From Acidimicrobiales bacterium (GTDB taxonomy: Bacteria; Actinomycetota; Acidimicrobiia; Acidimicrobiales; JBBRAZ01), in NCBI GenBank assembly GCA_038206295.1, contig JBBRAZ010000006.1, positions 48,734 through 112,733 on the forward strand: a DNA stretch of 64,000 nucleotides, read 5' to 3'. Each line of letters begins with the position of its first letter. Positions within the stretch are counted from its first letter, which is position 1. Shown piece after piece: positions 15,343 to 38,098 of the stretch. The notes beneath the pieces are model-generated. The model searched no databases. It had not been told where the DNA came from and saw only the letters and a list, made by a program, of their open reading frames with translations. A program made the translations under genes and the position numbers.

Positions 15343-16332
15343 CTATGGGAGCACGACGAGCTTTCCGGTCGCCCGCCCCGCTTCCATGTCGGCGTGGGCT
15401 TCGGCGATCTCGTCCAGGCGGTACGCGCGGTGGATCGGCACGCGGGCCTCGCCGGCGGCAACCGCGTCGAGGAACTCCTGCAGCACGGCAGGCGACAGAT
15501 CGCTGGCGTCGCCGCCGTAGGCGGTGAGCCGCACACCCCGGGGCAGGTACTCGATCGGGTAGAAGTCGCGCACCGTCCACTGGTTCGACAACATCCCGGT
15601 GAAGCACACCACGCCATGTACCCGCGTTGCCCGGAGCGTGTCGGGCAGCGTTGGTGTCCCGACCAGCTCGAGTGCGGTGTCGACGCCGTCGGGGAGATGC
15701 CGACGGACCTGGGTGGCCACATCGCCGTCGTCCACCAACGGGTACGTCACACCGATCTCGCGCAAGACGTCGGCGCGTTCGGCGTTGCGGGTGGTGGACA
15801 GCACCGTCATGCCGAGCCGCGCAGCGAGCACCGCTGCCGCCATGCCGACCGAGGAGGTGCCGCCGCGGATCAGGATCGACTGACCGGGTCGGGCGTCGAG
15901 GCCAACCGTGAGCGAACCGTGCGCGGTCTGGAGCATCTCGGGTACGGCGCCGAGCGTGGCCCAGTCCAGATCGCTCGTGAACGAAACGGTCTGTCGAACG
16001 GGCACGCACGTGTACTCGGCGTATCCGCCGTCGAACGTGCGGCCCATGCCACCCATCAATGCTGCGACCTGTGCGCCCGGTGCGAGCTCACCACCGGGAC
16101 AGCTCACGACGGTGCCGACGGCCTCGATGCCCAGGACACGAGGGAACGTCACCCCGTCTGCGAGGCCGAGGCGGGTGTGCAGCTCAGAACGGTTGAGCCC
16201 GAACGCTTCGACCTTGATCAGCACCTGACCCAGTTCGGGTGACGGTACGGGCACCTCACGAATCTGCAGCGCGTCAGGCGGCCCTGGCGCGTCGAGGACC
16301 ACAGCGCGCATCGTCGTCGGGTCTCCGTTCAT
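15343..16332 (-). CDS. Zinc-type alcohol dehydrogenase/quinone oxidoreductase (MDR superfamily)
   Basis: ORF track 329 aa: MRAVVLDAPGPPDALQIREVPVPSPELGQVLIKVEAFGLNRSE...GIEAVGTV...ILIRGGTSSVGMAAAVLA...GKLVVLP. Confidence 0.9.
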   Translation of the reverse strand: MNGDPTTMRAVVLDAPGPPDALQIREVPVPSPELGQVLIKVEAFGLNRSELHTRLGLADGVTFPRVLGIEAVGTVVSCPGGELAPGAQVAALMGGMGRTFDGGYAEYTCVPVRQTVSFTSDLDWATLGAVPEMLQTAHGSLTVGLDARPGQSILIRGGTSSVGMAAAVLAARLGMTVLSTTRNAERADVLREIGVTYPLVDDGDVATQVRRHLPDGVDTALELVGTPTLPDTLRATRVHGVVCFTGMLSNQWTVRDFYPIEYLPRGVRLTAYGGDASDLSPAVLQEFLDAVAAGEARVPIHRAYRLDEIAEAHADMEAGRATGKLVVLP

Positions 16333-17463: not shown

Positions 17464-17490
17464 CACAACGTTGTGATTTCGACAACAACC
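17464..17490. repeat. Palindrome-containing motif (CACAACGTTGTG-ATTTCGACAACAACC) abutting tRNA-half copy A
   Basis: cacaacgttgtgatttcgacaacaacc. The first 12 nt form a perfect palindrome. It is closely related to 28520-28553. Confidence 0.7.
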
Positions 17491-17491
17491 A

Positions 17492-17534
17492 GTGGGCGCT
17501 GAGGGACTCGAACCCCCGACCCCCTCCCTGCAAG
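17492..17534 (-). repeat. Copy A of the tRNA-Val 3' half (att-like scar or tRNA pseudogene fragment)
   Basis: gtgggcgctgagggactcgaacccccgaccccctccctgcaag matches 38024-38066 of the intact tRNA-Val at 41 of 43 positions (my count). No matching D-arm or 5' acceptor strand lies upstream. Confidence 0.75.
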
Positions 17535-17600
17535 CAACCCCGGAAAGCGCGAGAGTCGCAGTTACTTGCTTTTCGCCAGTGACTTTGCGACAGTGAGCTG

Positions 17601-18133: not shown

Positions 18134-18628
18134 ATGACCACCACCGAACGACATCAACCAGCCATCGAACGTGAAGCGCGCAAAGTCGTCAAGCTCGATC
18201 GCGGCCCGTTCCGGAAGCTCTCTAGTCGGATGCACTGCCGGATGTACCGCCTCACCGGTGGCCGCTTCGGCGGGCAGCTCGATTCGGCGAGTGGCGTCCG
18301 GCCCATCCTGCTGCTCGAAACGACCGGCCGCAGGACTGCTCGCAAGCGAATGACGCCACTCGTGTACCTGCGAGATGGCGAATCCTGGGTCGTGGCCGGC
18401 GCGAACGCCGGGCGCGACACGGATCCGGCCTGGGTCTTCAACCTCCGCAGCGATCCCCACGCCACGATCACCGTCGGCCGCGACGTCATCGATGTCGTTG
18501 CCACCGAGCTCGACCCCGCCGAAGCCCAAGCGATGTGGCCAGCGTTGAATGGCATGAACGCGCAGTACGAGGAGTATCAGAAGCTCACCGATCGAACCGT
18601 GCCCGTGATCCGGTTCCACCGCGACTGA
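18134..18628 (+). CDS. Deazaflavin (F420)-dependent nitroreductase family protein (DUF385-like)
   Basis: ORF 17924..18628. ATG at 18134 follows aggagga. ...MYRLTGGRFGG...ILLLETTGRRTARKRMTPLVYLRDGESWVVAGANAGRDTDPAWVFNLRSDPHATI... is the typical family signature. Confidence 0.85.
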   Translation: MTTTERHQPAIEREARKVVKLDRGPFRKLSSRMHCRMYRLTGGRFGGQLDSASGVRPILLLETTGRRTARKRMTPLVYLRDGESWVVAGANAGRDTDPAWVFNLRSDPHATITVGRDVIDVVATELDPAEAQAMWPALNGMNAQYEEYQKLTDRTVPVIRFHRD

Positions 18629-18679
18629 GCGGCCCGAAGGCACCCTGCTCCGGCCGCTTCCGCAATCGCCGACGGCCAA

Positions 18680-18958
18680 GCGCGCAAGACGTCGGCACGT
18701 TCGGCGTCGCGGGTGGTGGACAGCACCGTCATGCCGAGCCGACCAGCGAGCACGGCGGCCGCCATGCCCACCGAGGAGGTGCCGCCGCGGATCAGGATCG
18801 GCTGACCGGGTCGGGCGTCGAGGCCGACCGTGAGCGAACCGTGCGCCGTCTGGAGCATCTCGGGTACGGCGCCGAGCGTGGCCCAGTCGAGATCGCACGC
18901 GAACGGAACGGTCTGTCGAACGGGCACGCAGGTGCACTCGGCGCAACCGCCGTCGAAC
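18680..18958 (-). pseudogene. Internal fragment of a second MDR quinone-oxidoreductase gene (paralogue of 15343-16332)
   Basis: About 280 nt align colinearly with 15757-16037 at roughly 90 percent identity by eye. Translated, it reads ...CDLDWATLGAVPEMLQTAHGSLTVGLDARPGQPILIRGGTSSVGMAAAVLAGRLGMTVLSTTRDAERADVL. Both gene ends are missing. Confidence 0.8.
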
Positions 18959-18999: not shown

Positions 19000-19326
19000 T
19001 CAACCACAGTCCACGGCAACAGACAAGGCAGCACAGACATCCCGCATGCGCTCGTCGCTCAAGCGGCCGAGGCGATCAACAAGGACAGCGACCGACACGC
19101 TCTCGACCGAGTCGAGGTTGACGGCGCTTCGCCGAGGGACTGGATCGCTACCGGGCTCGAGCAGTACCTCACTCGGCAAGCCTCGGATGGTCGTGGTGCA
19201 CGGGGCGACAAGGGTTCGCCCCAGGCGGGGAATGGCGGCGTCGCGGCTCAACACGAGCACCGGCCGACGGCTGATCTCCGGCAGCTCGCACCACCACAGC
19301 TCGCCCCGCCTTGGCTGATCCTTCAC
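19000..19326 (-). CDS. mazF: Type II toxin, PemK/MazF family endoribonuclease
   Basis: ORF track 108 aa. [30 protein letters not shown]...[15 protein letters not shown] matches the MazF pattern RGdiw..d....g.E....RP.lVls. Confidence 0.85.
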
Positions 19327-19559
19327 GATGCAGCCGCTGCGGCGCGGAACGACGCGAGATCACCCCACTCGTCGGGCTCGTCGATCGGATGCTCGTCGTA
19401 CGCCGCGTAGGCGCCATCCAGCTCCGCGCCTCGATGCTGGGTCAGCAGCGCGTCGAGCGCTAGATCGAACAATGCAGCGTTCGAAGCCACGCCAGTCACC
19501 TCGTGGGCCCGAGTGAGCAGCTCGCCATCAACCGTGGTACTGACGCGTGTGCGAGTCAT
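19323..19559 (-). CDS. Cognate antitoxin (DUF2191/VapB-MazE-like)
   Basis: ORF 19323..19706, ATG at 19559 ([39 protein letters not shown]...). There is a 4-nt overlap with the toxin start. Confidence 0.7.
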
Positions 19560-19586
19560 GGCATAACCATGCCATGACTCGCACAC
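19547..19586. promoter_or_regulatory. Perfect 18-bp inverted repeat with 4-nt spacer spanning the antitoxin start codon (candidate TA operator)
   Basis: gtgtgcgagtcatggcat (19547-19564), spacer aacc, atgccatgactcgcacac (19569-19586). The arms are exact reverse complements. Confidence 0.6.
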
Positions 19587-19765
19587 AGCTGCAACATCAG
19601 CTCTGGGCAGCTCCCTGGATTCCCGACCACGGGCATGGTGCGGTCGTCTTCCGATCGGCACGACGCGGTCGCCTCGATGCCAAGCTGCGCCCGCAGGAGG
19701 TCGCATGGCTCGAACTGGCCGACGGCTGGAACCAGGGTCAAAGCGGTGTCAACGGAGGGCGACGA

Positions 19766-20188
19766 TCACGCGTCGAGCGGATTCGCCACATGAAATCCGC
19801 GGCGCTCCGCTGCATCACATAGTGCTGGGTCCGCACTCGTGACGATGTCCGCCTCAATCAAGAGCGCGGCGGCAAGGTGAACTGCGTCGTAGCCGCGAAG
19901 CGCCTCGTGCTCGGCGAGATCCGCCGCCTCAGCGATCAGCTCTTCGGTGACCTCGACGACGGTCAACCCGTCGAGCAGGCCCACAAGGTCGCGCTTGGCT
20001 GCTCGTTGCGCACTCGCGGTGAGCCGGCCCACTCGCTCAGCAGCCGCGAGCGCAGCGCGCGCCTCCACCACGATCAGGGCAGCTGCCGCCAGCACGTCGG
20101 CCGAGTCCCAGATGAGCGCGGCCTTCTCTGATCCGTCCTCCTCGATCAGCAACTTCAACAGCGAGGACGTGTCGACGTAGGTGATCAC
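19766..20188 (-). CDS. vapC: Type II toxin VapC (PIN-domain ribonuclease)
   Basis: ORF track 140 aa. MITYVDTSSLLKLLIEE... (first acidic residue), ...LRGYDAVHLAAAL..., ...IVTSADPALCDAAERRGF is the classic PIN pattern. Confidence 0.9.
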   Translation of the reverse strand: MITYVDTSSLLKLLIEEDGSEKAALIWDSADVLAAAALIVVEARAALAAAERVGRLTASAQRAAKRDLVGLLDGLTVVEVTEELIAEAADLAEHEALRGYDAVHLAAALLIEADIVTSADPALCDAAERRGFHVANPLDA

Positions 20189-20466
20189 CGCCGCTGTTCG
20201 GCGACCAAGTCGCTGACCGAGCCTGCCGACGTGATTCGTCGTGCCGGGCGGCTCCGCGAGGTCCGCTTTGGAGCTCGAACCACCCCAGACGCGATGAGCG
20301 TCGCCAGCCGGTCCGTTGCGTGGTCGAGCGCGGACAGCCGTGCAACCGGCTTGCCGCGATCGGTCACAACCACGTCCTCGCCCTCCCGTACGCGATCCAA
20401 GTACCGACTCAAGTTGTTCTTGAGGTCGCGAATACCGACCTCAACGTACGGTGTAGCTACATTCAT
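20185..20466 (-). CDS. vapB: Phd/YefM-type antitoxin paired with VapC
   Basis: ORF track 93 aa. VGIRDLKNNLSRYLDRVREGEDVVVTDRGKPVARL is the Phd/YefM N-terminal signature. There is a 4-nt overlap with vapC. Confidence 0.85.
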   Translation of the reverse strand: MNVATPYVEVGIRDLKNNLSRYLDRVREGEDVVVTDRGKPVARLSALDHATDRLATLIASGVVRAPKRTSRSRPARRITSAGSVSDLVAEQRR

Positions 20467-20489
20467 GCACCCAGTATAGCCACATGCAC
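20464..20489 (-). promoter_or_regulatory. vapBC promoter/operator: -10-like TATACT 6 nt upstream of the ATG (leaderless geometry) flanked by CATGCAC direct repeats
   Basis: The rc of 20464-20478 reads tatactgggtgcATG. catgcac occurs at 20464-20470 and 20483-20489. Confidence 0.4.
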
Positions 20490-20592
20490 ACCGCCATCAT
20501 CAACAGGCTGCTACCCAGCCTTCAGACTCCATTGCGCCGGTTCGTCGCCGTGCTCGTCGACGCAGTTGACGCCGGCTCGCAGTGACAACGAG

Positions 20593-20635
20593 TGGGCGCT
20601 GGGGGACTCGAACCCCCGACCCCCTCCTTGCAAGC
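20593..20635 (-). repeat. Copy B of the tRNA-Val 3' half (possibly part of a 102-nt scrambled tRNA pseudogene, 20593-20694)
   Basis: gtgggcgctgggggactcgaacccccgaccccctccttgcaag matches 38024-38066 at 41 of 43 positions. The T-stem change is compensatory (GGGGG/CCCCC). A GGGCGCT 5' acceptor complement lies at 20688-20694. Confidence 0.75.
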
Positions 20636-20764
20636 GGGCCAACAATCGGCAGTAGTGCCTCTACCTACACCTATGGCTTGCCCGTGAGCGCCCAGAGCCG
20701 CCAGATTGGTCGAGAACCGCCAGTTCCGGTGTCAAAACGGTGTCGACTCGTTGGGGTTGACTCG

Positions 20765-20851
20765 CCGTCGCGCTGCATGGCGCGGCGCCGCTGGGCGGCC
20801 TCGACCAGCTCAGCGAACGCGGGGTTCCTCGCCAAGCGAGCGTGGACGATC
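20765..20851 (-). pseudogene. Truncated higA-like antitoxin fragment (N-terminal region only)
   Basis: The rc translates IVHARLARNPAFAELVEAAQRRRAMQRDGE, compared with SAKNAEFPELVEAALRRRELLRS in the intact antitoxin 37169-37483. Similarity stops exactly at the ccctgacagacagggct repeat (20852). Confidence 0.6.
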
Positions 20852-20868
20852 CCCTGACAGACAGGGCT
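20852..20868. repeat. 17-nt direct repeat, left copy (ccctgacagacagggct) bracketing the Cys-rich mini-cassette
   Basis: An identical 17-mer occurs at 21708-21724. Both are followed by cttcgg (directly on the right copy, after a 14-nt insert on the left). The sequence is itself a small hairpin (ccctg..caggg). Confidence 0.7.
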
Positions 20869-20931
20869 GTCTCGCTGTGGCTTCGGAAAGCTCACCGATT
20901 CGCATCCCTGCAGATTACTGACCTCTCACCC

Positions 20932-20963
20932 TTGACCTTCCAGTACAGAGGAAGCTTTATCCT
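20932..20963 (+). promoter_or_regulatory. Candidate promoter of the mini-cassette: TTGACC - 20 nt - TATCCT, -10 ends 6 nt before the ATG (leaderless); short dyad in the spacer
   Basis: ttgacc is at 20932-20937 and tatcct at 20958-20963. cttcc/ggaag arms lie at 20937-20941 and 20950-20954. The ATG is at 20970. The over-long spacer is reminiscent of MerR-type promoters (inference). Confidence 0.35.
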
Positions 20964-20969
20964 GCGGTC

Positions 20970-21263
20970 ATGGAGATCGAGATCCTCTACTTCGAGGGCT
21001 GCCCGAACGTCGAACTCGCCGAAGACCGAGCCCGAGAAGCGACCTCCGGCCGCTCCGACGTCTCCGTGGTCCGCCGACGCATCCGCAACGAAGCAGATGC
21101 ACAGCGTTGGGGCATGTACGGCTCGCCCACGATCCTCGTCGATGGGACCGACCCGTTCACCGATCCAGACAGCGACGCGACCTGGGCGTGTCGCATCTTC
21201 TTCTCTCCCGAAGGCGCGTCGGGGGTGCCGACAGTCGGCCAGCTGCGCGAGGCGATCGGGTGA
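20970..21263 (+). CDS. Small thioredoxin-fold-like protein with conserved Cys (EGCPN ... ACR), family often found with heavy-metal genes
   Basis: ORF track 97 aa: MEIEILYFEGCPNVELAEDRAREA...GSPTILVDGTDPF...WACRIFFSPEGASGVPTVGQLREAI. The family recognition is from memory only. Confidence 0.65.
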   Translation: MEIEILYFEGCPNVELAEDRAREATSGRSDVSVVRRRIRNEADAQRWGMYGSPTILVDGTDPFTDPDSDATWACRIFFSPEGASGVPTVGQLREAIG

Positions 21264-21511
21264 TTGAGCGCAAAGAGGCCGCGCGGCTTGGTGTCGCAAG
21301 CGCGATCGGTATGACCATTTGCTGCACTCTCACCGCGCTGCTCATCGGCGGAGGGCTCACAACAGCGATCAGCGCGATAGGCGGTTCGCTCGGTCTGGCA
21401 GCGCTGAGCGGGCTGCTGTGCGCTGCCTTGCTGGTCGCGCACCAACACCGACGCTGCCTCGACCGGCCCGCCACGTCGCAGCCACTCTCGGTCGACTCGT
21501 GCACGGAATGA
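21260..21511 (+). CDS. Small two-TM membrane protein with vicinal Cys pair in TM1 (MerT/MerF-like metal transporter signature)
   Basis: A GTG at 21260 overlaps the upstream stop (GTGA). It is in frame with ORF 21107..21511. VIERKEAARLGVASAIGMTICCTLTALLIGGGLTTAISAIGGSLGLAALSGLLCAALLVAHQHRRC.... Confidence 0.5.
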   Translation: MIERKEAARLGVASAIGMTICCTLTALLIGGGLTTAISAIGGSLGLAALSGLLCAALLVAHQHRRCLDRPATSQPLSVDSCTE

Positions 21512-21707
21512 TCATCTGCATGACCACCGAGAAGGCGAGTGCGCTCAGGTCACGTCTGCACGGCCGGCGGCCACACTCGGTGCGCCCGTGTTGCCAGAAG
21601 GTGTCGCCCCGAAGGGGGATGCCGACGGACGTGACGTCACGAACCGCCTGGATCAGATCAAGGTTCGCCCTGTAGGGATGAATCGCTACACGAGCAATCT
21701 CACGTCA

Positions 21708-21724
21708 CCCTGACAGACAGGGCT
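21708..21724. repeat. 17-nt direct repeat, right copy (ccctgacagacagggct)
   Basis: Identical to 20852-20868. Confidence 0.7.
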
Positions 21725-21819
21725 TCGGTCACGGCAGCGCACGGTCGGAGCTCTTGACCTCACGACATCGAACAAGCGAGGCCCGCGCCGAGCCGCCGCT
21801 CGGTCGCGCGCCCGTCCGG

Positions 21820-23043
21820 TCAGGCGGCTCGTAACACGGGTGGCACTCCCCGTGCGATCAGGTCCTCCGGCGCGGACTCGGGTCCGGCGAACATGGCGAC
21901 CACGAGCGGGAAGACGTCCGGGTGCATCGCTGCCATCGCTTCGCCGAAGCGCGCTCGACGGTCACTTCGGTCCGGCCCTGCCAACACGGAGCTCGACACG
22001 ATGATGTCGGCGATCACCTCGAGCCGGCGCACGAGGTCGAGCCGCTGTGCCGCGTACGGCGCGAAGTCCTCAGCCGCGCTGGCGCCAGCGATGATGAGGT
22101 CCCGCACGGTACGAGCGTCGCGCATGGCCACGGACAGTCCGCACCCGATCGATGGGTCGGTCTGCCCGGCCGCGTCGCCGATCAGCACCACAGCGCCACG
22201 GGCAGGGGTGGCGGTGCGGGTCTGAGTGTTCGGGAAGGTGGCACACGGACCAGCAGGCACTGCTGCCTCCACGAGGTCAGCAAGATGGGTAGGCCCGTCG
22301 CGCAAGTCGTCGATGAAGTTGACGGTCCCCGCAGTGCCGGCATACCGAGTTCGGTCCTCCACCGGGACCACGTGATACACGCGCGCCCGGCCGGCACCCT
22401 GGTGGAACACGAGGCTCATGCCGCGGTCGTGCTCGGCGACGAGGTCGTGATCGTCGGGGCCGGCCAATCCGTCGAGCAGCAGCCCTGCGACGGCGGCGGT
22501 GGCGTCGACCTGGTCAAGCTCCACCCCGATGGCCCTGCGCACGGTCGACGACCGTCCGTCGGCGCCCACCACGAGCCGGCCGGCGACGTGCTCGCTTCGC
22601 CCCTCCCGACAGAAGCCCACCACGGCGGCGTCCGCGTGCTGGGCGACCGACACCTCGCGAACGCCCCTGCGTACGTCGGCACCGGCCGCAGTCGCCGCGT
22701 CGAGCAGCGCCTGGCAGGCGTCCGGATGATGCAGGTTGAGGTTGCCGTCGACGCCCGGCACGAGGATGCCGACCGGGATGTCCCGGGCCTCGGTATCGCC
22801 CTCACCGAAGCGACGCCACGTCGGCGCAATGTGGGCGCCCGCTCCTCGCAGCACGGATCCGACGCCGAGGCGGTCCGCCTCGGCGACGCCCCACGGCATC
22901 ATGCTCTCGCCCCGCACCCGATCGACGAACCGCTCGGTTGCCTCCAGCGCCACCACGTCGAGGCCGGCACCGGCCAGCGCCGTGGCGAGCGAGGCCCCCG
23001 CGATGCCACCGCCGACCACGACCACATCATGTGCTCGATCCAT
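21820..23043 (-). CDS. FAD-dependent monooxygenase (UbiH/aromatic-ring hydroxylase-like)
   Basis: ORF track 407 aa. The N-terminal dinucleotide fold is HDVVVVGGGIAGASLATALAGAGLDVVALE, followed by ...VVGADGRSSTVRR... and ...LIGDAAGQTDPSIGCGLS.... Confidence 0.9.
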   Translation of the reverse strand: MDRAHDVVVVGGGIAGASLATALAGAGLDVVALEATERFVDRVRGESMMPWGVAEADRLGVGSVLRGAGAHIAPTWRRFGEGDTEARDIPVGILVPGVDGNLNLHHPDACQALLDAATAAGADVRRGVREVSVAQHADAAVVGFCREGRSEHVAGRLVVGADGRSSTVRRAIGVELDQVDATAAVAGLLLDGLAGPDDHDLVAEHDRGMSLVFHQGAGRARVYHVVPVEDRTRYAGTAGTVNFIDDLRDGPTHLADLVEAAVPAGPCATFPNTQTRTATPARGAVVLIGDAAGQTDPSIGCGLSVAMRDARTVRDLIIAGASAAEDFAPYAAQRLDLVRRLEVIADIIVSSSVLAGPDRSDRRARFGEAMAAMHPDVFPLVVAMFAGPESAPEDLIARGVPPVLRAA

Positions 23044-28553: not shown

Positions 28554-28583
28554 GTGGGCGCTGAGGGACTCGAACCCCCGACC
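28554..28583 (-). repeat. Copy C of the tRNA-Val 3' end (T-arm plus acceptor only)
   Basis: gtgggcgctgagggactcgaacccccgacc is identical (30/30) to 38024-38053. Similarity is lost beyond the variable loop. Confidence 0.65.
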
Positions 28584-29225: not shown

Positions 29226-29588
29226 TCAGTAGCTGAAGGTCGTTGCGCCGTCGCCGATCCACTCCCACATCGGGATGGTGCCTTGGAGCTCGGCGCCCGC
29301 GATGAGCGTGCTGTTGTCGAGCTCCTTGGCGTTGAAGCACACCGGGCAGACGAAGTAGCGGCCGCCGGCGGCCTCGTAGCGCTTGACGAGGTCGGCGAGG
29401 GGCGGGCAGCCGTCGCATGCGACGCCGATCGCGATGCCGACGAGGCCGAGGCGCACGGCTTCCTTGGAGAGGAACATGAGGGTCTCGCGACCGGACTCGG
29501 CGGCGCCGACGGCAACGAGGTACGCGACGGTGACCTTCTCGGGGTCCTCGAGCCCGGTGGTCAGGGAGATGACTGCCTTGTTCGCCAT
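29226..29588 (-). CDS. DsrE/DsrF-like sulfur-relay family protein
   Basis: ORF track 120 aa: MANKAVISLTTGLEDPEKVTVAYLVAVGAAESGRETLMFLSKEAV...YFVCPVCFNAKELD.... Confidence 0.8.
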   Translation of the reverse strand: MANKAVISLTTGLEDPEKVTVAYLVAVGAAESGRETLMFLSKEAVRLGLVGIAIGVACDGCPPLADLVKRYEAAGGRYFVCPVCFNAKELDNSTLIAGAELQGTIPMWEWIGDGATTFSY

Positions 29589-29701: not shown

Positions 29702-29750
29702 TACGGAGGTCGCGCCGCCGGGTCGTCCGGTGTTCGCCCTACAAATCGAG
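29702..29750. repeat. ~49-nt direct repeat, copy 1 (contains the last codons and stop of the LuxR-type gene)
   Basis: The 25-nt core tccggtgttcgccctacaaatcgag (29726-29750) is identical to 32273-32297. The flanking 24 nt are about 60-80 percent similar (tacgga..gggtc). Confidence 0.75.
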
Positions 29751-31313
29751 GGGTTCGAGCGAGTCCAGCAGTCCGTTCTGCATGGCGAACAGCGTGGCCG
29801 TCGATCGCGTCGAGGCGCCGATCTTGACGTAGATCCGCTCGATGTGGGTGCCCGCCGTCTTGGGGGTGATGCCCAGCTTCTGGGCGACCTGACGATTCGA
29901 CGCTCCCCGCGAGATGAGCGTCAGGACCTCGATCTCCCGCGGCGTCAGGCCAGCGGGTCCGGCGGCCCGCTTCGGTCGGCGCTCCCCGGCGGCGACGAGC
30001 ACCGCGTCAACGGCGTCGGCAGCGAGGCGACCGGCGCGAACCTCGCTGCGAAGCTCGCCCGCCGCTTCCTTCCCGGAGCGCGCGGGCCTGTAGGCGCGGG
30101 GCTCGCGCATCGCCTGGTACGCGCATGCCGCTGCGAGGATCCGCCCGAGGGTGGGGATCGCTGATCCGGACAGGCCCCGGTGATAGCCCGACCCGTCGAG
30201 GCGTTCGTTCGCCATCGACGCGATGGCACCGATCCGCGCCAGAGCCGGTGGCCGCGCAAGGGTCCGTTCTGTGTAGTACGAGTGCATCCGCATCCGTTCG
30301 GATTCGGTCGCCGTCAGCGGGCCGGGCTTGTCGAGGATGTTCGACGGCACGCCGTGCATGCCGACGTCATGCACCAGGCCGGCGCGGCGGAGCAGCATCA
30401 GGTCCTCGGGAGCGAGGCCGCACGACTCCCCCGCTCGAGCTGCGAGGTCGGCGACCGCGCGCGAATGGCCTGATCGGCATCGTGAGCGCAGGTCGGTGAA
30501 GTCGGCGATCGCCTCCAGCGCGGTGTCGAGCTGCGACTCGGTGAGCCGCTGCTGCAGCCTCGGGTCGCTCGCGATCTCGGCGGCAAGATCCGGTATGTCG
30601 TCCATGCCCCGGAACAGCTCGTCCGCGGCAGCACAGAACTCGTCGACGATCGACGGGTCGAACTGCTTGCCCCGCCGTGACCGGGCCAGCTCGACCGCAG
30701 CGTCGGCGCCGCCGTGCTGATGGAACACCTCGACGTTGTCGGCCAGCTGGAACAACCGAATCGACCGGGCGATCTCCTCGCCGCCGATGCCGCTGGGGAC
30801 CCCTGTGCCGTCCCATCGGGTGAAGACCTGTTGCAGCGGGTCGCACACCTCCTCGCCGAGCCCGAGACGCTGCGCCATCTGCGCGGTGGTGAGGCAATGC
30901 GCCATCAGCCCGCGCTCGATCGCCTTGCCGCCGGTCGCGACGAGCGTGCCGGCGAGACGCAGCCGGTTCAAGGCCGGGCTTCCGAGGCCCACGTGACGCA
31001 GCGCGAAGCGCTGCATGGGCAGGCCGGCGAAGTCCACCTCGTAGCTGTCACGACGGAACGCGATGTCGTCGCCGAACCAGGTGGCGACCTCCGGGGTGTC
31101 GGCCACGCACCCCACCCACGCCAACATCACCACGTAGTACAGCGCAGCGGCGTCGTCGTTCTCGATGCCCATGCGGTCGCCGAGACGGGTCGCGATCACC
31201 CACGAGCGCAGCACGTGCTCCATCGGCTGGCCCATGCCGAGATCCGTCGCCAGCGAGAAGGCGGCAACGACCTCGGCCAAGCGGACGCCCGAATCTCGCT
31301 GGTCGGATGACAC
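29739..31313 (-). CDS. Transcriptional regulator with two HD(-GYP-like) domains and a C-terminal LuxR-type HTH
   Basis: ORF track 524 aa. It shows ...ALYYVVMLAWVGCV.. and ..LLRRAGLVHDVGMHGVP...ERMRMHSYYTERTL...ANERLDGSGYHRGL (HD-domain-like). The C-terminal LTPREIEVLTLISRGASNRQVAQKLGITPKTAGTHIERIYVKIG is a LuxR/FixJ HTH. Confidence 0.85.
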   Translation of the reverse strand: MSSDQRDSGVRLAEVVAAFSLATDLGMGQPMEHVLRSWVIATRLGDRMGIENDDAAALYYVVMLAWVGCVADTPEVATWFGDDIAFRRDSYEVDFAGLPMQRFALRHVGLGSPALNRLRLAGTLVATGGKAIERGLMAHCLTTAQMAQRLGLGEEVCDPLQQVFTRWDGTGVPSGIGGEEIARSIRLFQLADNVEVFHQHGGADAAVELARSRRGKQFDPSIVDEFCAAADELFRGMDDIPDLAAEIASDPRLQQRLTESQLDTALEAIADFTDLRSRCRSGHSRAVADLAARAGESCGLAPEDLMLLRRAGLVHDVGMHGVPSNILDKPGPLTATESERMRMHSYYTERTLARPPALARIGAIASMANERLDGSGYHRGLSGSAIPTLGRILAAACAYQAMREPRAYRPARSGKEAAGELRSEVRAGRLAADAVDAVLVAAGERRPKRAAGPAGLTPREIEVLTLISRGASNRQVAQKLGITPKTAGTHIERIYVKIGASTRSTATLFAMQNGLLDSLEPLDL

Positions 31314-31357: not shown

Positions 31358-32134
31358 TCACGTCGGCTTGGTGGCGAGGAACACGTGTGCGTACACGTCG
31401 AAGGTGCGGGCGTTGCGCTCGCCTCCTGAGCCGCCGAACGCGTCGATGGCCGGCCCAACGGAGATGTCGGTGAAGCCAGCGTCGGTGAGCAGGGTGCACC
31501 AATCGTCCACGGGCTTGCCCCCACCGACGCATCCGGTCCACAGGTCGATGTTGCACACGGCCTGTTCGGGGAGCGGCTTGCCGTTGGCGATGTCGGCGAA
31601 CTGGATGTGCCCGCCGGGCTTGAGTGCCCGGTACGCCTGGGCGAGCACCGCCGCCTTGTCGGCGACGAGGTTGATGACGCCGTTGGCGATGACCACGTCT
31701 GCCCAGCTGTCCTCGACGGGGAGCTCTTCGAGGATGCCGTCGCGGAACTCGACGTTGACGAGTCCGAGCTGATCAGCGGTCTCGGTGGCCTTGGCGAGCA
31801 TCTCCGGGGTCATGTCCACGCCGATGACCGCGCCATCGGCGCCGACCGCTCGAGCGGCGACGAAGCAGTCGAACCCGCCACCCGAGCCGAGATCGACGAC
31901 GTGCTCACCGGGCTCCAGGGGCCGCACGGCGTGGGGGTTGCCGACGCCGGCGAAGGACTCGACCGCCCGATCGGACAACGTATCGACCACGGTCGAGTCG
32001 TAGCCGAGGAGCTCAGCGAGCGGCCTACCCGTGTGGAAGTGGAAGTCCCCTCCAGGATCGGTTGCTACGTCCTTGTACTTGTCGCGCACGTTGGCTCGAA
32101 GGGCCTCGGGATCGACGCTGATCGTGTTGTGCAC
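31358..32134 (-). CDS. SAM-dependent methyltransferase, ArsM (arsenite methyltransferase)-like
   Basis: ORF track 258 aa. ...VRDKYKDVATDPGGDFHFHTGRPLAELLGYD... is followed by SAM motif VVDLGSGGGFDCF. ...VIANGVINLVADK... and LKPGGHIQFADI resemble ArsM/UbiE-type enzymes. Confidence 0.8.
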   Translation of the reverse strand: MHNTISVDPEALRANVRDKYKDVATDPGGDFHFHTGRPLAELLGYDSTVVDTLSDRAVESFAGVGNPHAVRPLEPGEHVVDLGSGGGFDCFVAARAVGADGAVIGVDMTPEMLAKATETADQLGLVNVEFRDGILEELPVEDSWADVVIANGVINLVADKAAVLAQAYRALKPGGHIQFADIANGKPLPEQAVCNIDLWTGCVGGGKPVDDWCTLLTDAGFTDISVGPAIDAFGGSGGERNARTFDVYAHVFLATKPT

Positions 32135-32248
32135 CGCTCGCCTCCACTGTTGGGTGCCAGGCGTCTGCCTGGGCTGAGCCGCATCAGCTCCTTCACCGGC
32201 GGGGCCGGGCTGACTCGAGGGCGCTCCGGAGCACCCACACGGTCAACC

Positions 32249-32297
32249 TACGGACGTGCGAGGCGCGGGTCATCCGGTGTTCGCCCTACAAATCGAG
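32249..32297. repeat. ~49-nt direct repeat, copy 2 (abuts the truncated antitoxin fragment)
   Basis: See 29702-29750. Confidence 0.75.
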
Positions 32298-32472
32298 CGA
32301 CCGGACGGGCGACCGGACAGGAGGAGTGCCACCTGAGCGAGCGCGACGTCGTGAAGATGAAAGAGCGCTGCACGGCGCGGCGCCGCCGGGCGGCCTCGAC
32401 CAGATCCGGGAACTCGGGGTTCTTCACCGACCGCGCACGGACGATCTCGTCGAGGAAGTCATCGTTGTCCAT
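32298..32472 (-). pseudogene. Frameshifted, truncated higA-like antitoxin
   Basis: The rc from ATG 32472-32470 reads MDNDDFLDEIVRARSVKNPEFPDLVEAARRRRAVQRS. The homologous continuation (RALSSSRRRALAQVALLLSGR) is in the +1 frame. Compare with the intact 37169-37483. Confidence 0.6.
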
Positions 32473-32527
32473 GCTCACCTCTCAGGCATCTGGTTGCAGA
32501 GAGAGTAGTCCCAGCCAAAGACCAGAC

Positions 32528-37168: not shown

Positions 37169-37483
37169 TCAGGCGCTACGGCGTGGCCGCGCGCGTTCCG
37201 CCGACAGGACGAAGTCGACCCGCTGGCCGACGGCAGCCGCGTAGCGCTCGATCGTCGACAGCCGGGCGTCGACGTCAGCTGACTCGAGCCTGGCAACGGC
37301 AGACTGCGACGTGCCCATGCGCCCGGCGACCAACGTCTGCGAGAGGCCGAGCTCCTCGCGGCGCGCTGCGAGCGAGCGCAGAAGCTCGCGGCGCCGCAGC
37401 GCTGCTTCGACCAACTCCGGGAACTCCGCGTTCTTCGCCGAGCGCTCCCGGATGATCTCGTCGAGGAAGTCACCACCACTCAT
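37169..37483 (-). CDS. higA: XRE-family HTH antitoxin (HigA-like)
   Basis: ORF 37169..37489. ATG at 37483 follows gtgaggtg. MSGGDFLDEIIRERSAKNAEFPELVEAALRRRELLRSLAARREELGLSQTLVAGRMGTSQSAVARLES.... Confidence 0.85.
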   Translation of the reverse strand: MSGGDFLDEIIRERSAKNAEFPELVEAALRRRELLRSLAARREELGLSQTLVAGRMGTSQSAVARLESADVDARLSTIERYAAAVGQRVDFVLSAERARPRRSA

Positions 37484-37531
37484 ACGCACCTCACGTGTAT
37501 CTCGTTTCTGAGATACTACTGTAGGGATCCG

Positions 37532-37885
37532 TCATGGGCTACCCCGGGATCGGGAGCGCCAGTCCTTGAGCCGCCGCTCAGCCAGCCGAATGGTCTCTGG
37601 GGGTGTCTTCTGCGACTTCTTCGAGATGCCCTCCAGCGCAAGGAGCACCTGCGCGGCCTTCCCCTCTGAGGCGAACAGGATGCGGAACGCCTGCCGATCT
37701 CCATCGGCGCGTACCTCGTAGAGGTCGTCGCGCAGGTGGCGTGCGGCCGGCAGACCTTCCAGCTGCACCTCCTTCATCGCCGCGACGACCGCAGCAGCAT
37801 CAGCGTCGCTCAAGTCGCCGATGAACTCCCTCACGGGCCGACGGCCAGCCGCAGTTCGGTAGTCACGCCATCGCCGCTTCGCCAT
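37532..37885 (-). CDS. higB: Type II toxin, RelE/HigB-like (Gp49/DUF891-type)
   Basis: ORF 37532..37945, ATG at 37885. MAKRRWRDYRTAAGRRPVREFIGDLSDADAAAVVAAMKEV...LYEVRADGDRQAFRILFASEGKAAQVLLALEGISKKSQKTPPETIRLAERRLKDW is the classic pattern. A -10-like TACTCT lies 6 nt upstream of the ATG. Confidence 0.85.
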   Translation of the reverse strand: MAKRRWRDYRTAAGRRPVREFIGDLSDADAAAVVAAMKEVQLEGLPAARHLRDDLYEVRADGDRQAFRILFASEGKAAQVLLALEGISKKSQKTPPETIRLAERRLKDWRSRSRGSP

Positions 37886-38021
37886 GTCCGCAGAGTACGA
37901 GTGCCAGTGAGAGCTCCCGACCCCGCTTCTTGCCTGTGCCGCCATCGAGTTCCGGTGTCAGCCTCGGTGGCAACCGGGGAGCGAGATCCGTGCCCTCGAT
38001 CGCGTCCTCCCAGGTCAGACG

Positions 38022-38098
38022 TGGTGGGCGCTGAGGGACTCGAACCCCCGACCCCCTCCTTGTAAGGGAGGTGCTCTAGCCAGCTGAGCTAAGCGCCC
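38022..38098 (-). tRNA. tRNA-Val (anticodon TAC), CCA encoded
   Basis: The rc reads GGGCGCT TA GCTC AGCTGGCTA GAGC A CCTCC CTTACAA GGAGG GGGTC GGGGG TTCGAGT CCCTC AGCGCCC A CCA. The acceptor has 7 bp. The D, anticodon and T arms all pair, and the anticodon loop is CT-TAC-AA. Confidence 0.9.

Follow-up and report, generated by a model that had tools for sequence, protein, structure and literature searches.

Genes A and B and the remains of their regulator

A 64,000-nt stretch of contig JBBRAZ010000006.1 from an Acidimicrobiales bacterium (the whole stretch is called the window hereafter) carries, between two identical copies of a 17-nt sequence, two small genes that we designate A and B, preceded by a promoter of the type controlled by MerR-family regulators. 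We describe the two genes, the repeats and the sequence remnants around them (Table 1), together with the operons in which relatives of A and B are found, and we regard the interval as probably the promoter-proximal stub of an actinobacterial mer-type operon (named after the mercury-resistance genes) that was cut by copies of an insertion sequence (IS). A preliminary description of this DNA had proposed a thiophilic-metal handling cassette that entered as a discrete unit; the gene coordinates given there, the GTGA start/stop overlap of A and B and the EGCPN, ACR and CC cysteine motifs of their products were all recovered from the sequence. Loci used for comparison are cited by the handles of our analysis (L007 and the like).

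Table 1. Features of the locus and of comparison loci; positions refer to the window unless a locus handle is given.
Feature	Position	Strand	Remark
tRNA-Val 3'-end copy (island-border type repeat)	20592-20634	-	95% over 43 nt; context, outside the operon
XRE-family (HTH_3) antitoxin remnant	20770-20851	-	ends exactly at the start of the IS tip
IS tip, copy 1, 15 nt (CCCTGACAGACAGGG)	20852-20866	+	same tip as the IS3-family elements of ~1.5 kb
merR remnant, codons 1-12 (MRIGELSEATAR)	20870-20905	-	matches the start of L007 merR
MerR-type divergent promoter/operator	20932-20963	+	aligns with eight loci having a divergent MerR-family gene
Gene A, 97 residues, thioredoxin fold	20970-21263	+	EGCPN and ACR motifs
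Gene B, 83 residues, two-helix membrane protein	21260-21511	+	GMTICCTLTALL, ICC motif
Segment between gene B and the IS stub, 151 nt	21512-21662	.	a merB-like gene starts here in intact relatives
IS left-end stub, copy 2, 60 nt	21663-21722	+	oriented like copy 1; homology to L049 and L047
DsrE-family cluster, open reading frames	29226-29588, 29739-31313, 31358-32134	-	
A::MerB fusions	L009 5865-6842 (NZ_CP109047); L010 5864-6850 (NZ_CP108626)		Streptomyces plasmids
Flavoprotein examples	L062 7155-8513; L065 3023-4381; L079, L085, L100, L103		after A-B-merB or directly after A

Protein A has no Pfam match. Its alignment to NCBIfam NF049942, 'DF family (seleno)protein', extends over all 96 model positions with 59 bits (E 3.4e-16), its relatives scoring 59-63 bits, and although this lies below the cutoff of 70 bits we judge A from these alignments to be a clear relative of that family, on which a literature search for 'DF family' selenoproteins returned no paper. 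Membership of the thioredoxin fold is borne out by a profile of 42 relatives of A, which matches the thioredoxin of PDB 1FO5 (E 6e-8) and also 1NHO, 1ILO and 2K8S, by the AlphaFold2 (AF2) model (pLDDT 94.4, element order b-a-b-a-b...b-b-a), and by Foldseek, for which thioredoxins and glutaredoxins are the top matches of this model (TM about 0.5). Invariant are C11-P12, G51-S-P-T-I55 (cis-Pro region) and D61, together with C74-R75, which belongs to an inserted loop; the CxxC redox motif expected at the N-terminus of helix 1 is replaced by C11-P12-N-V, from which the second Cys is missing, and 63 residues separate C11 from C74. With the MJ0307 (1FO5) and MtH895 (1ILO) thioredoxins A shares a minimal thioredoxin fold of about 80-97 residues. 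SaoT, an MJ0307-like protein with a suspected metal-binding function, whose gene lies next to that of a MerB homologue (bioRxiv 10.1101/2022.07.06.499078), likewise resembles A in its fold and its MerB-linked context, and the SaoT model NF040730 is not among the NCBIfam matches of A. From all three proteins A differs by having CPxx instead of CxxC and by the extra loop that bears the invariant C74-R75.

The hydropathy profile of B shows a single hydrophobic block at approximately residues 10-60, split by GGG/GG and fitting two helices, the first of which contains the Cys pair C21-C22 (CC) that is invariant in 23 of 23 family members. Proteins of this family are about 80 residues long and have a basic RRR stretch after helix 2; most of them carry a second CC some 8-10 residues beyond this stretch, in the cytoplasmic tail, where the window protein has R65-C66 (CGC TGC), one base change away from CC. 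The family comprises 23 clusters in profile searches and its members stand directly after A wherever the context was read. An exhaustive search with B found five distant relatives, a word-indexed homologue search with B alone retrieved only B itself, and tblastn of B against plasmids gave no match.

The preliminary description had pointed to the CC pair as a hallmark of the MerT, MerF and MerC importers, and this holds as far as architecture is concerned, since B shows the size (about 80 residues), the two transmembrane helices and the helix-1 Cys pair of MerF; MerT has three helices and MerC four (PMC3466566), against two in B. It does not hold at the level of sequence families: B has no match in NCBIfam or in Pfam (E<=1) and is thus outside the MerF model PF11431, three of its relatives searched against Pfam (E<=0.1) yielded no MerT, MerF, MerC or MerE, a profile of the B family retrieved no MerF chain from the PDB at E<=10, and hhalign of the B family with MerF, for which the MerF sequence was checked against PDB 2M67, gave a probability of 36% over 16 tail columns only. 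We therefore read B as having the architecture of MerF without membership by sequence, so that its CC appears to be a resemblance. Compared with MerF (PF11431; PDB 2M67/2H3O), the B family is alike in size, helices, Cys pairs and promoter-proximal place in a MerR-controlled operon, the second vicinal Cys pair of the tail, a MerF trait, being lost from the window copy and present in most of its relatives; it differs in having no detectable sequence homology and in being actinobacterial, MerF belonging to proteobacterial mer operons. The mer transport families covered by the reviews consulted are MerT, P, C, E, F, G and H, among which merF and merE are patchily distributed in Firmicutes and Proteobacteria (PMC3466566); the A and B families have no mention in the mer reviews consulted, this one included.

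The promoter of the two genes consists of a -35 element, TTGACC (20932-20937), and a -10 element, TATCCT (20958-20963), with a 20-nt spacer that contains the dyad CCTTCC-N8-GGAAGc; the -10 element ends six nt before the ATG of A, and the A-B mRNA would be near-leaderless. A standard sigma-70 scan, which allows spacers of 16-18 nt, detected no promoter because the spacer has 20 nt. Over the 40 nt that precede A, the window can be aligned without gaps to L007, L062 and L065-L069; the pattern common to them is CTTGACC TTCCAG.....GGAAGG TTTAGGGT, with its end some six nt ahead of the ATG. The operators of L009 and L010 align too, with shifted spacing, and all aligned loci have a divergent MerR-family gene. 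The resemblance to MerR-type promoters, already noticed in the preliminary description, is thus upheld in both spacer and dyad and extends to these loci. On the minus strand, ATGCGAATCGGTGAGCT, read from 20905 downwards, agrees at 16 of 17 bases with the start of L007 merR, whose start codon is GTG, and the distance from this remnant to the operator equals that in L007; after 12 codons the merR reading frame runs into the first copy of the 17-mer. The earlier statement that the window contains no merR is consequently correct for an intact gene and incorrect for its first 12 codons, and by this comparison the regulator is to all appearances broken, not absent by design.

The direct repeat and the ends of IS3-family elements

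The sequence CCCTGACAGACAGGGCT occurs exactly at 20852-20868 and again at 21708-21724, in agreement with the preliminary description, and no third copy exists in the window when up to three mismatches are allowed. The latter had also stated that both copies are followed by cttcgg; this is a matter of register, since at copy 2 the motif occupies 21723-21728 and overlaps the final two bases of the 17-mer, and at copy 1 it lies at 20881-20886, 12 nt further on, within the merR remnant. In 100 second-order Markov simulations of the window composition, exact 17-mer pairs arose by chance with a mean of 2.3 per window, and pairs no more than 1 kb apart with a mean of 0.06, being seen in 5 of the 100 simulations. 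The pair is therefore unusual by its spacing, yet borderline on statistics alone, and we take the repeat as real on outside evidence, namely the IS ends described below. In a scan of 185,579 species, each represented by one genome, the 17-mer was found in 51 genomes with one copy in each (about 70 occurrences were expected by chance according to our own arithmetic, for which no tool was used). This single copy per genome rules out a genome-wide repeat of the repetitive extragenic palindrome (REP) type and disposes of the possibility, envisaged in the preliminary description, that the 17-mer is a common repeat throughout its genome. A recombination site similar to att or attC, or a target duplication, was likewise ruled out, as the outer flanks are non-contiguous and no recombinase is present.

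In 16 of the 51 genomes the left flank of the 17-mer is conserved, reading ...CTCAACTCA or ...CTCACCTCA and continuing further inward, and the right flanks of these 16 occurrences are mutually unrelated. The segment common to them is an element of ~1.5 kb that terminates at the 17-mer and encodes orfA/orfB matching the NCBIfam IS3 transposase model NF033516 (for OrfB of L041, 180 bits with a cutoff of 160); its plasmid relatives carry the annotation IS3 family. Both ends of the element were defined by comparing five copies with one another (L015, L024, L041, L044 and L049). Such an element-to-element comparison replaced an inverted-repeat search for the right end, for no inverted partner of the 17-mer was found near the IS copies at <=4 mismatches, the two ends differing over their outer 8-10 nt. 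If the element ends in ...CCCTGACAGACAGGG, four of the five copies are flanked by matching 3-bp duplications, which read CTG, CTC, CTC and CTC. In their NF033516 orfA/orfB, their imperfect terminal inverted repeats and their 3-bp target duplications these elements are like the IS3 family. Judged by this comparison, the 17-mer is evidently composed of the 15-nt tip of an IS3-family left inverted repeat and the 'CT' of a 3-bp target.

Note also some properties of these ends. IS3-family elements usually have the ends TG...CA. As read from the five elements, the ends of the present subgroup begin CCCTG... on the left and CGGAAC... on the right, and the left tip is a 15-nt palindrome, CCCTG-ACAGA-CAGGG. 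The target triplets of the four elements are all CTN, a preference for CT that is inseparable from the bias of the search pattern.

Both copies of the 17-mer in the window have a counterpart in these elements, with which they are alike in terminal sequence; of the left end no more than 15 nt remain at copy 1 and 60 nt at copy 2. Copy 1 is followed by CTG at 20867-20869, the position of the 3-bp target duplication, and the flanking homologies, to an antitoxin gene on one side and to merR on the other, both stop at it. The antitoxin remnant, on the inner side of copy 1, is the 5' part of an XRE-family gene, with paralogues at 32248-32478 and 37169-37489 (84% identity over 82 nt to 32365-32446 and 79% to 37387-37444), and its junction with copy 1 shows microhomology (ACGATC vs ACGTCA). 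Over 67 nt the region of copy 2 has 82% identity with the IS end of L049; it matches L047 at 27 of 27 positions and is followed by CTT at 21723-21725. Neither IS3 transposase homology nor a right IS end was found in the 64-kb window, and the stub, a very short query, gave no match against plasmids.

An actinobacterial operon and its probable truncation at this locus

Judged from gene order, relatives of A and B form a recurring actinobacterial operon of the apparent composition merR <-> A - B - merB-like gene - MerA-like flavoprotein gene. In L062-L066, which were found as B relatives, a divergent merR is followed by A (98 residues), B (82-83 residues) and a MerB-family lyase, with overlapping start and stop codons; a flavoprotein of 452 residues comes next in L062-L065, and L066 has a convergent FAD_binding_3 protein instead. 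By eye, the MerB-like sequence of L062 has the catalytic Cys-x-x-Asp and a later Phe-Cys. L007 has merR <-> A (51% identical) - B-like gene (ATGA overlap) - small open reading frame - flavoprotein, and L004-L006 have merR <-> A - merB with a Pyr_redox flavoprotein nearby. Further neighbourhoods of A are ArsR - A - MerR-like in Streptomyces, MerR - A, and HMA protein - A, and one neighbourhood is without metal genes. Relatives of A are common in metagenomes, where a scan identified at least 526 stretches that code for them, often on short contigs; among the best 80 metagenome loci encoding A, MerR, MerB, a MerA-like protein or B lies no more than 4 kb from A in 43, the individual counts being 26 for MerR, 22 for MerB plus three A::MerB fusions, 8 for the MerA-like flavoprotein and 5 for B. 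Two Streptomyces plasmids encode a fusion with A as its N-terminal part and a protein of the alkylmercury-lyase family as the remainder, next to a divergently encoded heavy-metal regulator, and in P0025 (169 residues, from a Logan contig) A is fused to a B-like two-helix CC membrane domain. The thiophilic-metal function suggested in the preliminary description is well supported by these neighbourhoods, in which A and B relatives are embedded in merR/merB/MerA-like clusters, and by the A::MerB and A::B-like fusions; the survey of homologues proposed there thus revealed recurrent co-occurrence with metal-resistance genes. Within the thiophilic metals, mercury is our best guess.

The flavoprotein of these operons has the redox site GGTCALRGC (CxxxxC) and ends in ...AAYPTxGSDLGSML, without a C-terminal vicinal Cys pair and without an NmerA domain. 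It scores 245 bits against the NCBIfam MerA model, the cutoff of which is 454, and its best match, slightly better, is glutathione-reductase-like. The criteria for MerA include both the redox CxxxxC and the C-terminal vicinal Cys pair (PMC8261052); the operon flavoprotein falls outside them, and standard MerA surveys would miss it. With the mer operon of Tn501/Tn21 (merR <-> merT-P-(C/F)-A-(B)-D) the A-B operon has in common that a MerR-family regulator is divergently encoded, that the promoter spacer is over-long and contains a dyad, and that transport genes come first and enzymes after; it differs in that the transport and carrier genes come from other families (A and B) and in that the flavoprotein has neither NmerA nor the C-terminal Cys pair.

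Taken together, these comparisons make it probable, in our view, that the interval between the repeats is what remains of the front part of such an operon. As read from the sequence, one IS3-family copy sits in codon 13 of merR and a second one, in the same orientation, downstream of B, and each IS remnant (the 15-nt tip and the 60-nt stub) is followed by a CTN target triplet. Deletions would then have removed nearly all of both IS copies with adjoining DNA, and the same deletions would have taken the rest of merR together with, by analogy with the relatives, the merB-like and flavoprotein genes. Of a mer operon the locus retains the operator and promoter, 12 codons of the regulator gene, and no MerA. 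The promoter should be weak and unresponsive, since the MerR activator is missing and the spacer has 20 nt. Given that there is no activator, that the downstream enzymes are gone and that one Cys of the B tail is lost, A and B in the window are most likely a weakly, constitutively transcribed relic and not a working resistance unit. When merT, merP or merC is expressed without merA, the importer alone sensitises the cell to Hg(II), which argues against a selected stand-alone role of A and B.

In the intact system, B would move Hg(II) across the membrane on the Cys pair of helix 1, the Cys pair of its tail would hand the ion over to soluble A (Cys11/Cys74), and A would shuttle Hg(II) between transporter, lyase and flavoprotein as a trans-acting counterpart of NmerA/MerP, possibly also standing in for the C-terminal Cys tail that the flavoprotein is without. 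The fusions A::MerB and A::B-like support the contacts proposed here between A and MerB and between A and B. By analogy, A may have the same role as NmerA and MerP, that of a small soluble two-thiol Hg(II) carrier encoded in, or fused to, mer proteins, from which it differs in structure: NmerA and MerP have an HMA ferredoxin-like fold with a GMTCxxC loop, and A has a thioredoxin fold with its two Cys 63 residues apart. We hold these hand-off roles of A and B to be about as plausible as their contrary. The absence of NmerA and of the C-terminal Cys pair from the flavoprotein would allow A to contribute thiols in trans, and one may go further and suppose that free A (Cys11/Cys74) provides the thiol pair present in cis in canonical MerA, taking Hg(II) from the MerF-like but sequence-unrelated B and from the lyase, a proposal that is rather doubtful. 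A precedent for a couple of A and flavoprotein is the Synechocystis MerA-like enzyme, which, as cited in PMC8261052, reduces Hg(II) in dependence on a thioredoxin-fold partner, glutaredoxin 1 (Marteyn et al., 2013); it belongs to another lineage, with a regular glutaredoxin encoded elsewhere as the partner.

Several points weigh against the reading of the interval as an IS-cut stub of a mercury operon. The putative identification of copy 1 as an IS tip concerns only 15-17 nt and relies on their identity and on the double break in homology. In the 151-nt segment between B and the IS stub (21512-21662), searches by blastn, tblastx, tblastn and Pfam found no merB or merA remnant, and no IS homology was found there either. 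Mercury would be assigned by association only, through the MerB-like lyase and a three-Cys MerR-family regulator, and the chemistry of a flavoprotein without the C-terminal Cys pair may differ from classical Hg(II) reduction. Both open reading frames are intact, so that a residual stand-alone role of A and B is possible; in a stronger version, the stub would conceivably have been kept intact by a role of its own, such as uptake or buffering of Hg(II). Finally, the junctions are known from this genome and the identical 1.3-kb read assembly L001 only, so that the order of events is not reconstructable. As regards the 151-nt segment itself, a minus-strand frame has coding-like G+C content by codon position (0.68/0.50/0.80), and 'MTTE' at 21520, considered as a possible start of merB, was rejected for want of statistical support.

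The alternatives can be weighed against the same evidence. That A-B is a self-contained mini-cassette, which entered as a unit bordered by the 17-nt repeats and never had a regulator or reductase, is suggested by exact 17-mers around two intact, coupled genes and by the rarity of so close a pair by chance (0.06 per window). Yet 16 genomes have the 17-mer at unrelated sites as the tip of an IS3-family end, the IS sequence at copy 2 amounts to 60 nt, the two repeats enclose a merR stump, intact relatives run on into merB-like and flavoprotein genes, the outer flanks are non-contiguous, with an antitoxin remnant on one side and sequence 3' of a monooxygenase gene on the other, and no recombinase is nearby. 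We consequently find this view, which was that of the preliminary description, very improbable: the supposed borders are IS3-family left-end tips with a merR stump between them, and the lack of regulator and reductase reflects damage and not design, merR having been cut by an IS insertion and the intact relatives having kept the merB-like and flavoprotein genes. It is scarcely credible either that the repeat pair arose by chance, even though some two exact 17-mer pairs are expected per window and 5% of the simulated windows have a pair no more than 1 kb apart, because copy 2 sits inside 60 nt of IS-end homology and copy 1 is placed exactly where the independent antitoxin and merR homologies both end.

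A composite transposon, in which two direct IS3-family copies carried the mer fragment here and then decayed, accounts for two left-end stubs of the same type and orientation on either side of the fragment and for their location in a mosaic, decayed island region. It seems improbable to us, as the left IS interrupts merR and the mobilised unit would have been defective from the outset, right ends and transposase were not found in the window, the unit is recorded nowhere else, and an active IS that inserted independently at the two places accounts for the data just as well. A different objection concerns function. A and B might handle other thiophilic species (Cd, Cu, As, reactive sulfur, electrophiles), or A might be an ordinary redox protein, given that the flavoprotein fits best as glutathione-reductase-like and has no MerA C-terminal Cys pair, that the regulator scores equally as ZntR, CadR, CueR or MerR, and that some A relatives lie beside ArsR, HMA or non-metal genes. 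Against this stand the MerB-family lyase, which is the commonest enzyme neighbour of A and is also fused to it, the motifs that the MerB-like sequence of L062 was seen by eye to keep, and, for an ordinary redox protein, the absence from A of the second CxxC Cys required for thiol-disulfide exchange. We therefore think this alternative unlikely.

If the interval is an IS-cut operon stub, what the window shows is genome decay of an ordinary kind, in which two IS3-family insertions cut a mer-type operon and deletions trimmed it, and short direct repeats flanking genes can be stubs of IS ends, not recombination sites. The wider by-product lies in the parent operon type, in which A and B are undescribed accessory families and the A/B module recurs at the front of a non-canonical actinobacterial mer-type operon. 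Should A and B handle Hg(II), surveys that count only MerA, B, T, P, C, E and F would undercount actinobacterial mercury systems, and the A::MerB and A::B fusions give testable hypotheses of hand-off.

The surrounding tRNA-Val island

The A-B stub lies inside a decayed tRNA-Val island. The reference for the tRNA-Val 3'-end copy next to it is the intact gene at 38022-38098, downstream of which three partial copies occur in the same orientation, at 17485-17535, 20592-20634 and 28554-28583; they measure 30-51 nt, are 95-100% identical, and look like serial integrations whose islands have since decayed. Among the open reading frames of the window that were checked no integrase was seen, and Rfam gave just sub-threshold tRNA-like noise, at the tRNA fragment, on 20400-21900. 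The intact antitoxin paralogue at 37169-37489 is of the HTH_3 type and adjoins a Gp49/HigB-like toxin, with which it forms a toxin-antitoxin (TA) pair at 37169-37900 (-), beside tRNA-Val; the paralogue at 32248-32478 (-) is truncated, and the shorter remnant next to copy 1 is on the same strand. The antitoxin copies look as if every stacked island once had the same module at its tRNA-proximal end.

TA-like pairs also lie immediately upstream of the locus, at 19000-20466 (-): a PhdYeFM antitoxin at 20185-20466, identified by a tool match, with a PIN-like open reading frame at 19766-20188 recognised by eye, and a MazF/PemK-like open reading frame at 19000-19326 with a small upstream one, also recognised by eye. 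Further upstream, 15787-16008 and 18709-18930 are near-identical duplicates of ~220 bp, in which six blocks of 20-41 nt match exactly, all displaced by the same 2922 nt, and the reading frame 18577-18927 (-) resembles a pseudogene fragment derived from 15343-16332 (-). Another rearrangement scar may be the 25-nt sequence TCCGGTGTTCGCCCTACAAATCGAG, which is repeated exactly at 29726-29750 and 32273-32297; one copy falls in the 3' part of the truncated antitoxin paralogue, where that gene is divergent, and the other shortly before the stop codon of the HD-GYP/LuxR gene. In the cluster to which this gene belongs (Table 1), a DsrE-family protein with CDGC and CPVC motifs adjoins the HD-GYP + LuxR-type regulator and an S-adenosylmethionine (SAM) methyltransferase; DsrE-like CxxC proteins are present in the SAO organometallic system of Haft and Gwadz (bioRxiv 10.1101/2022.07.06.499078).

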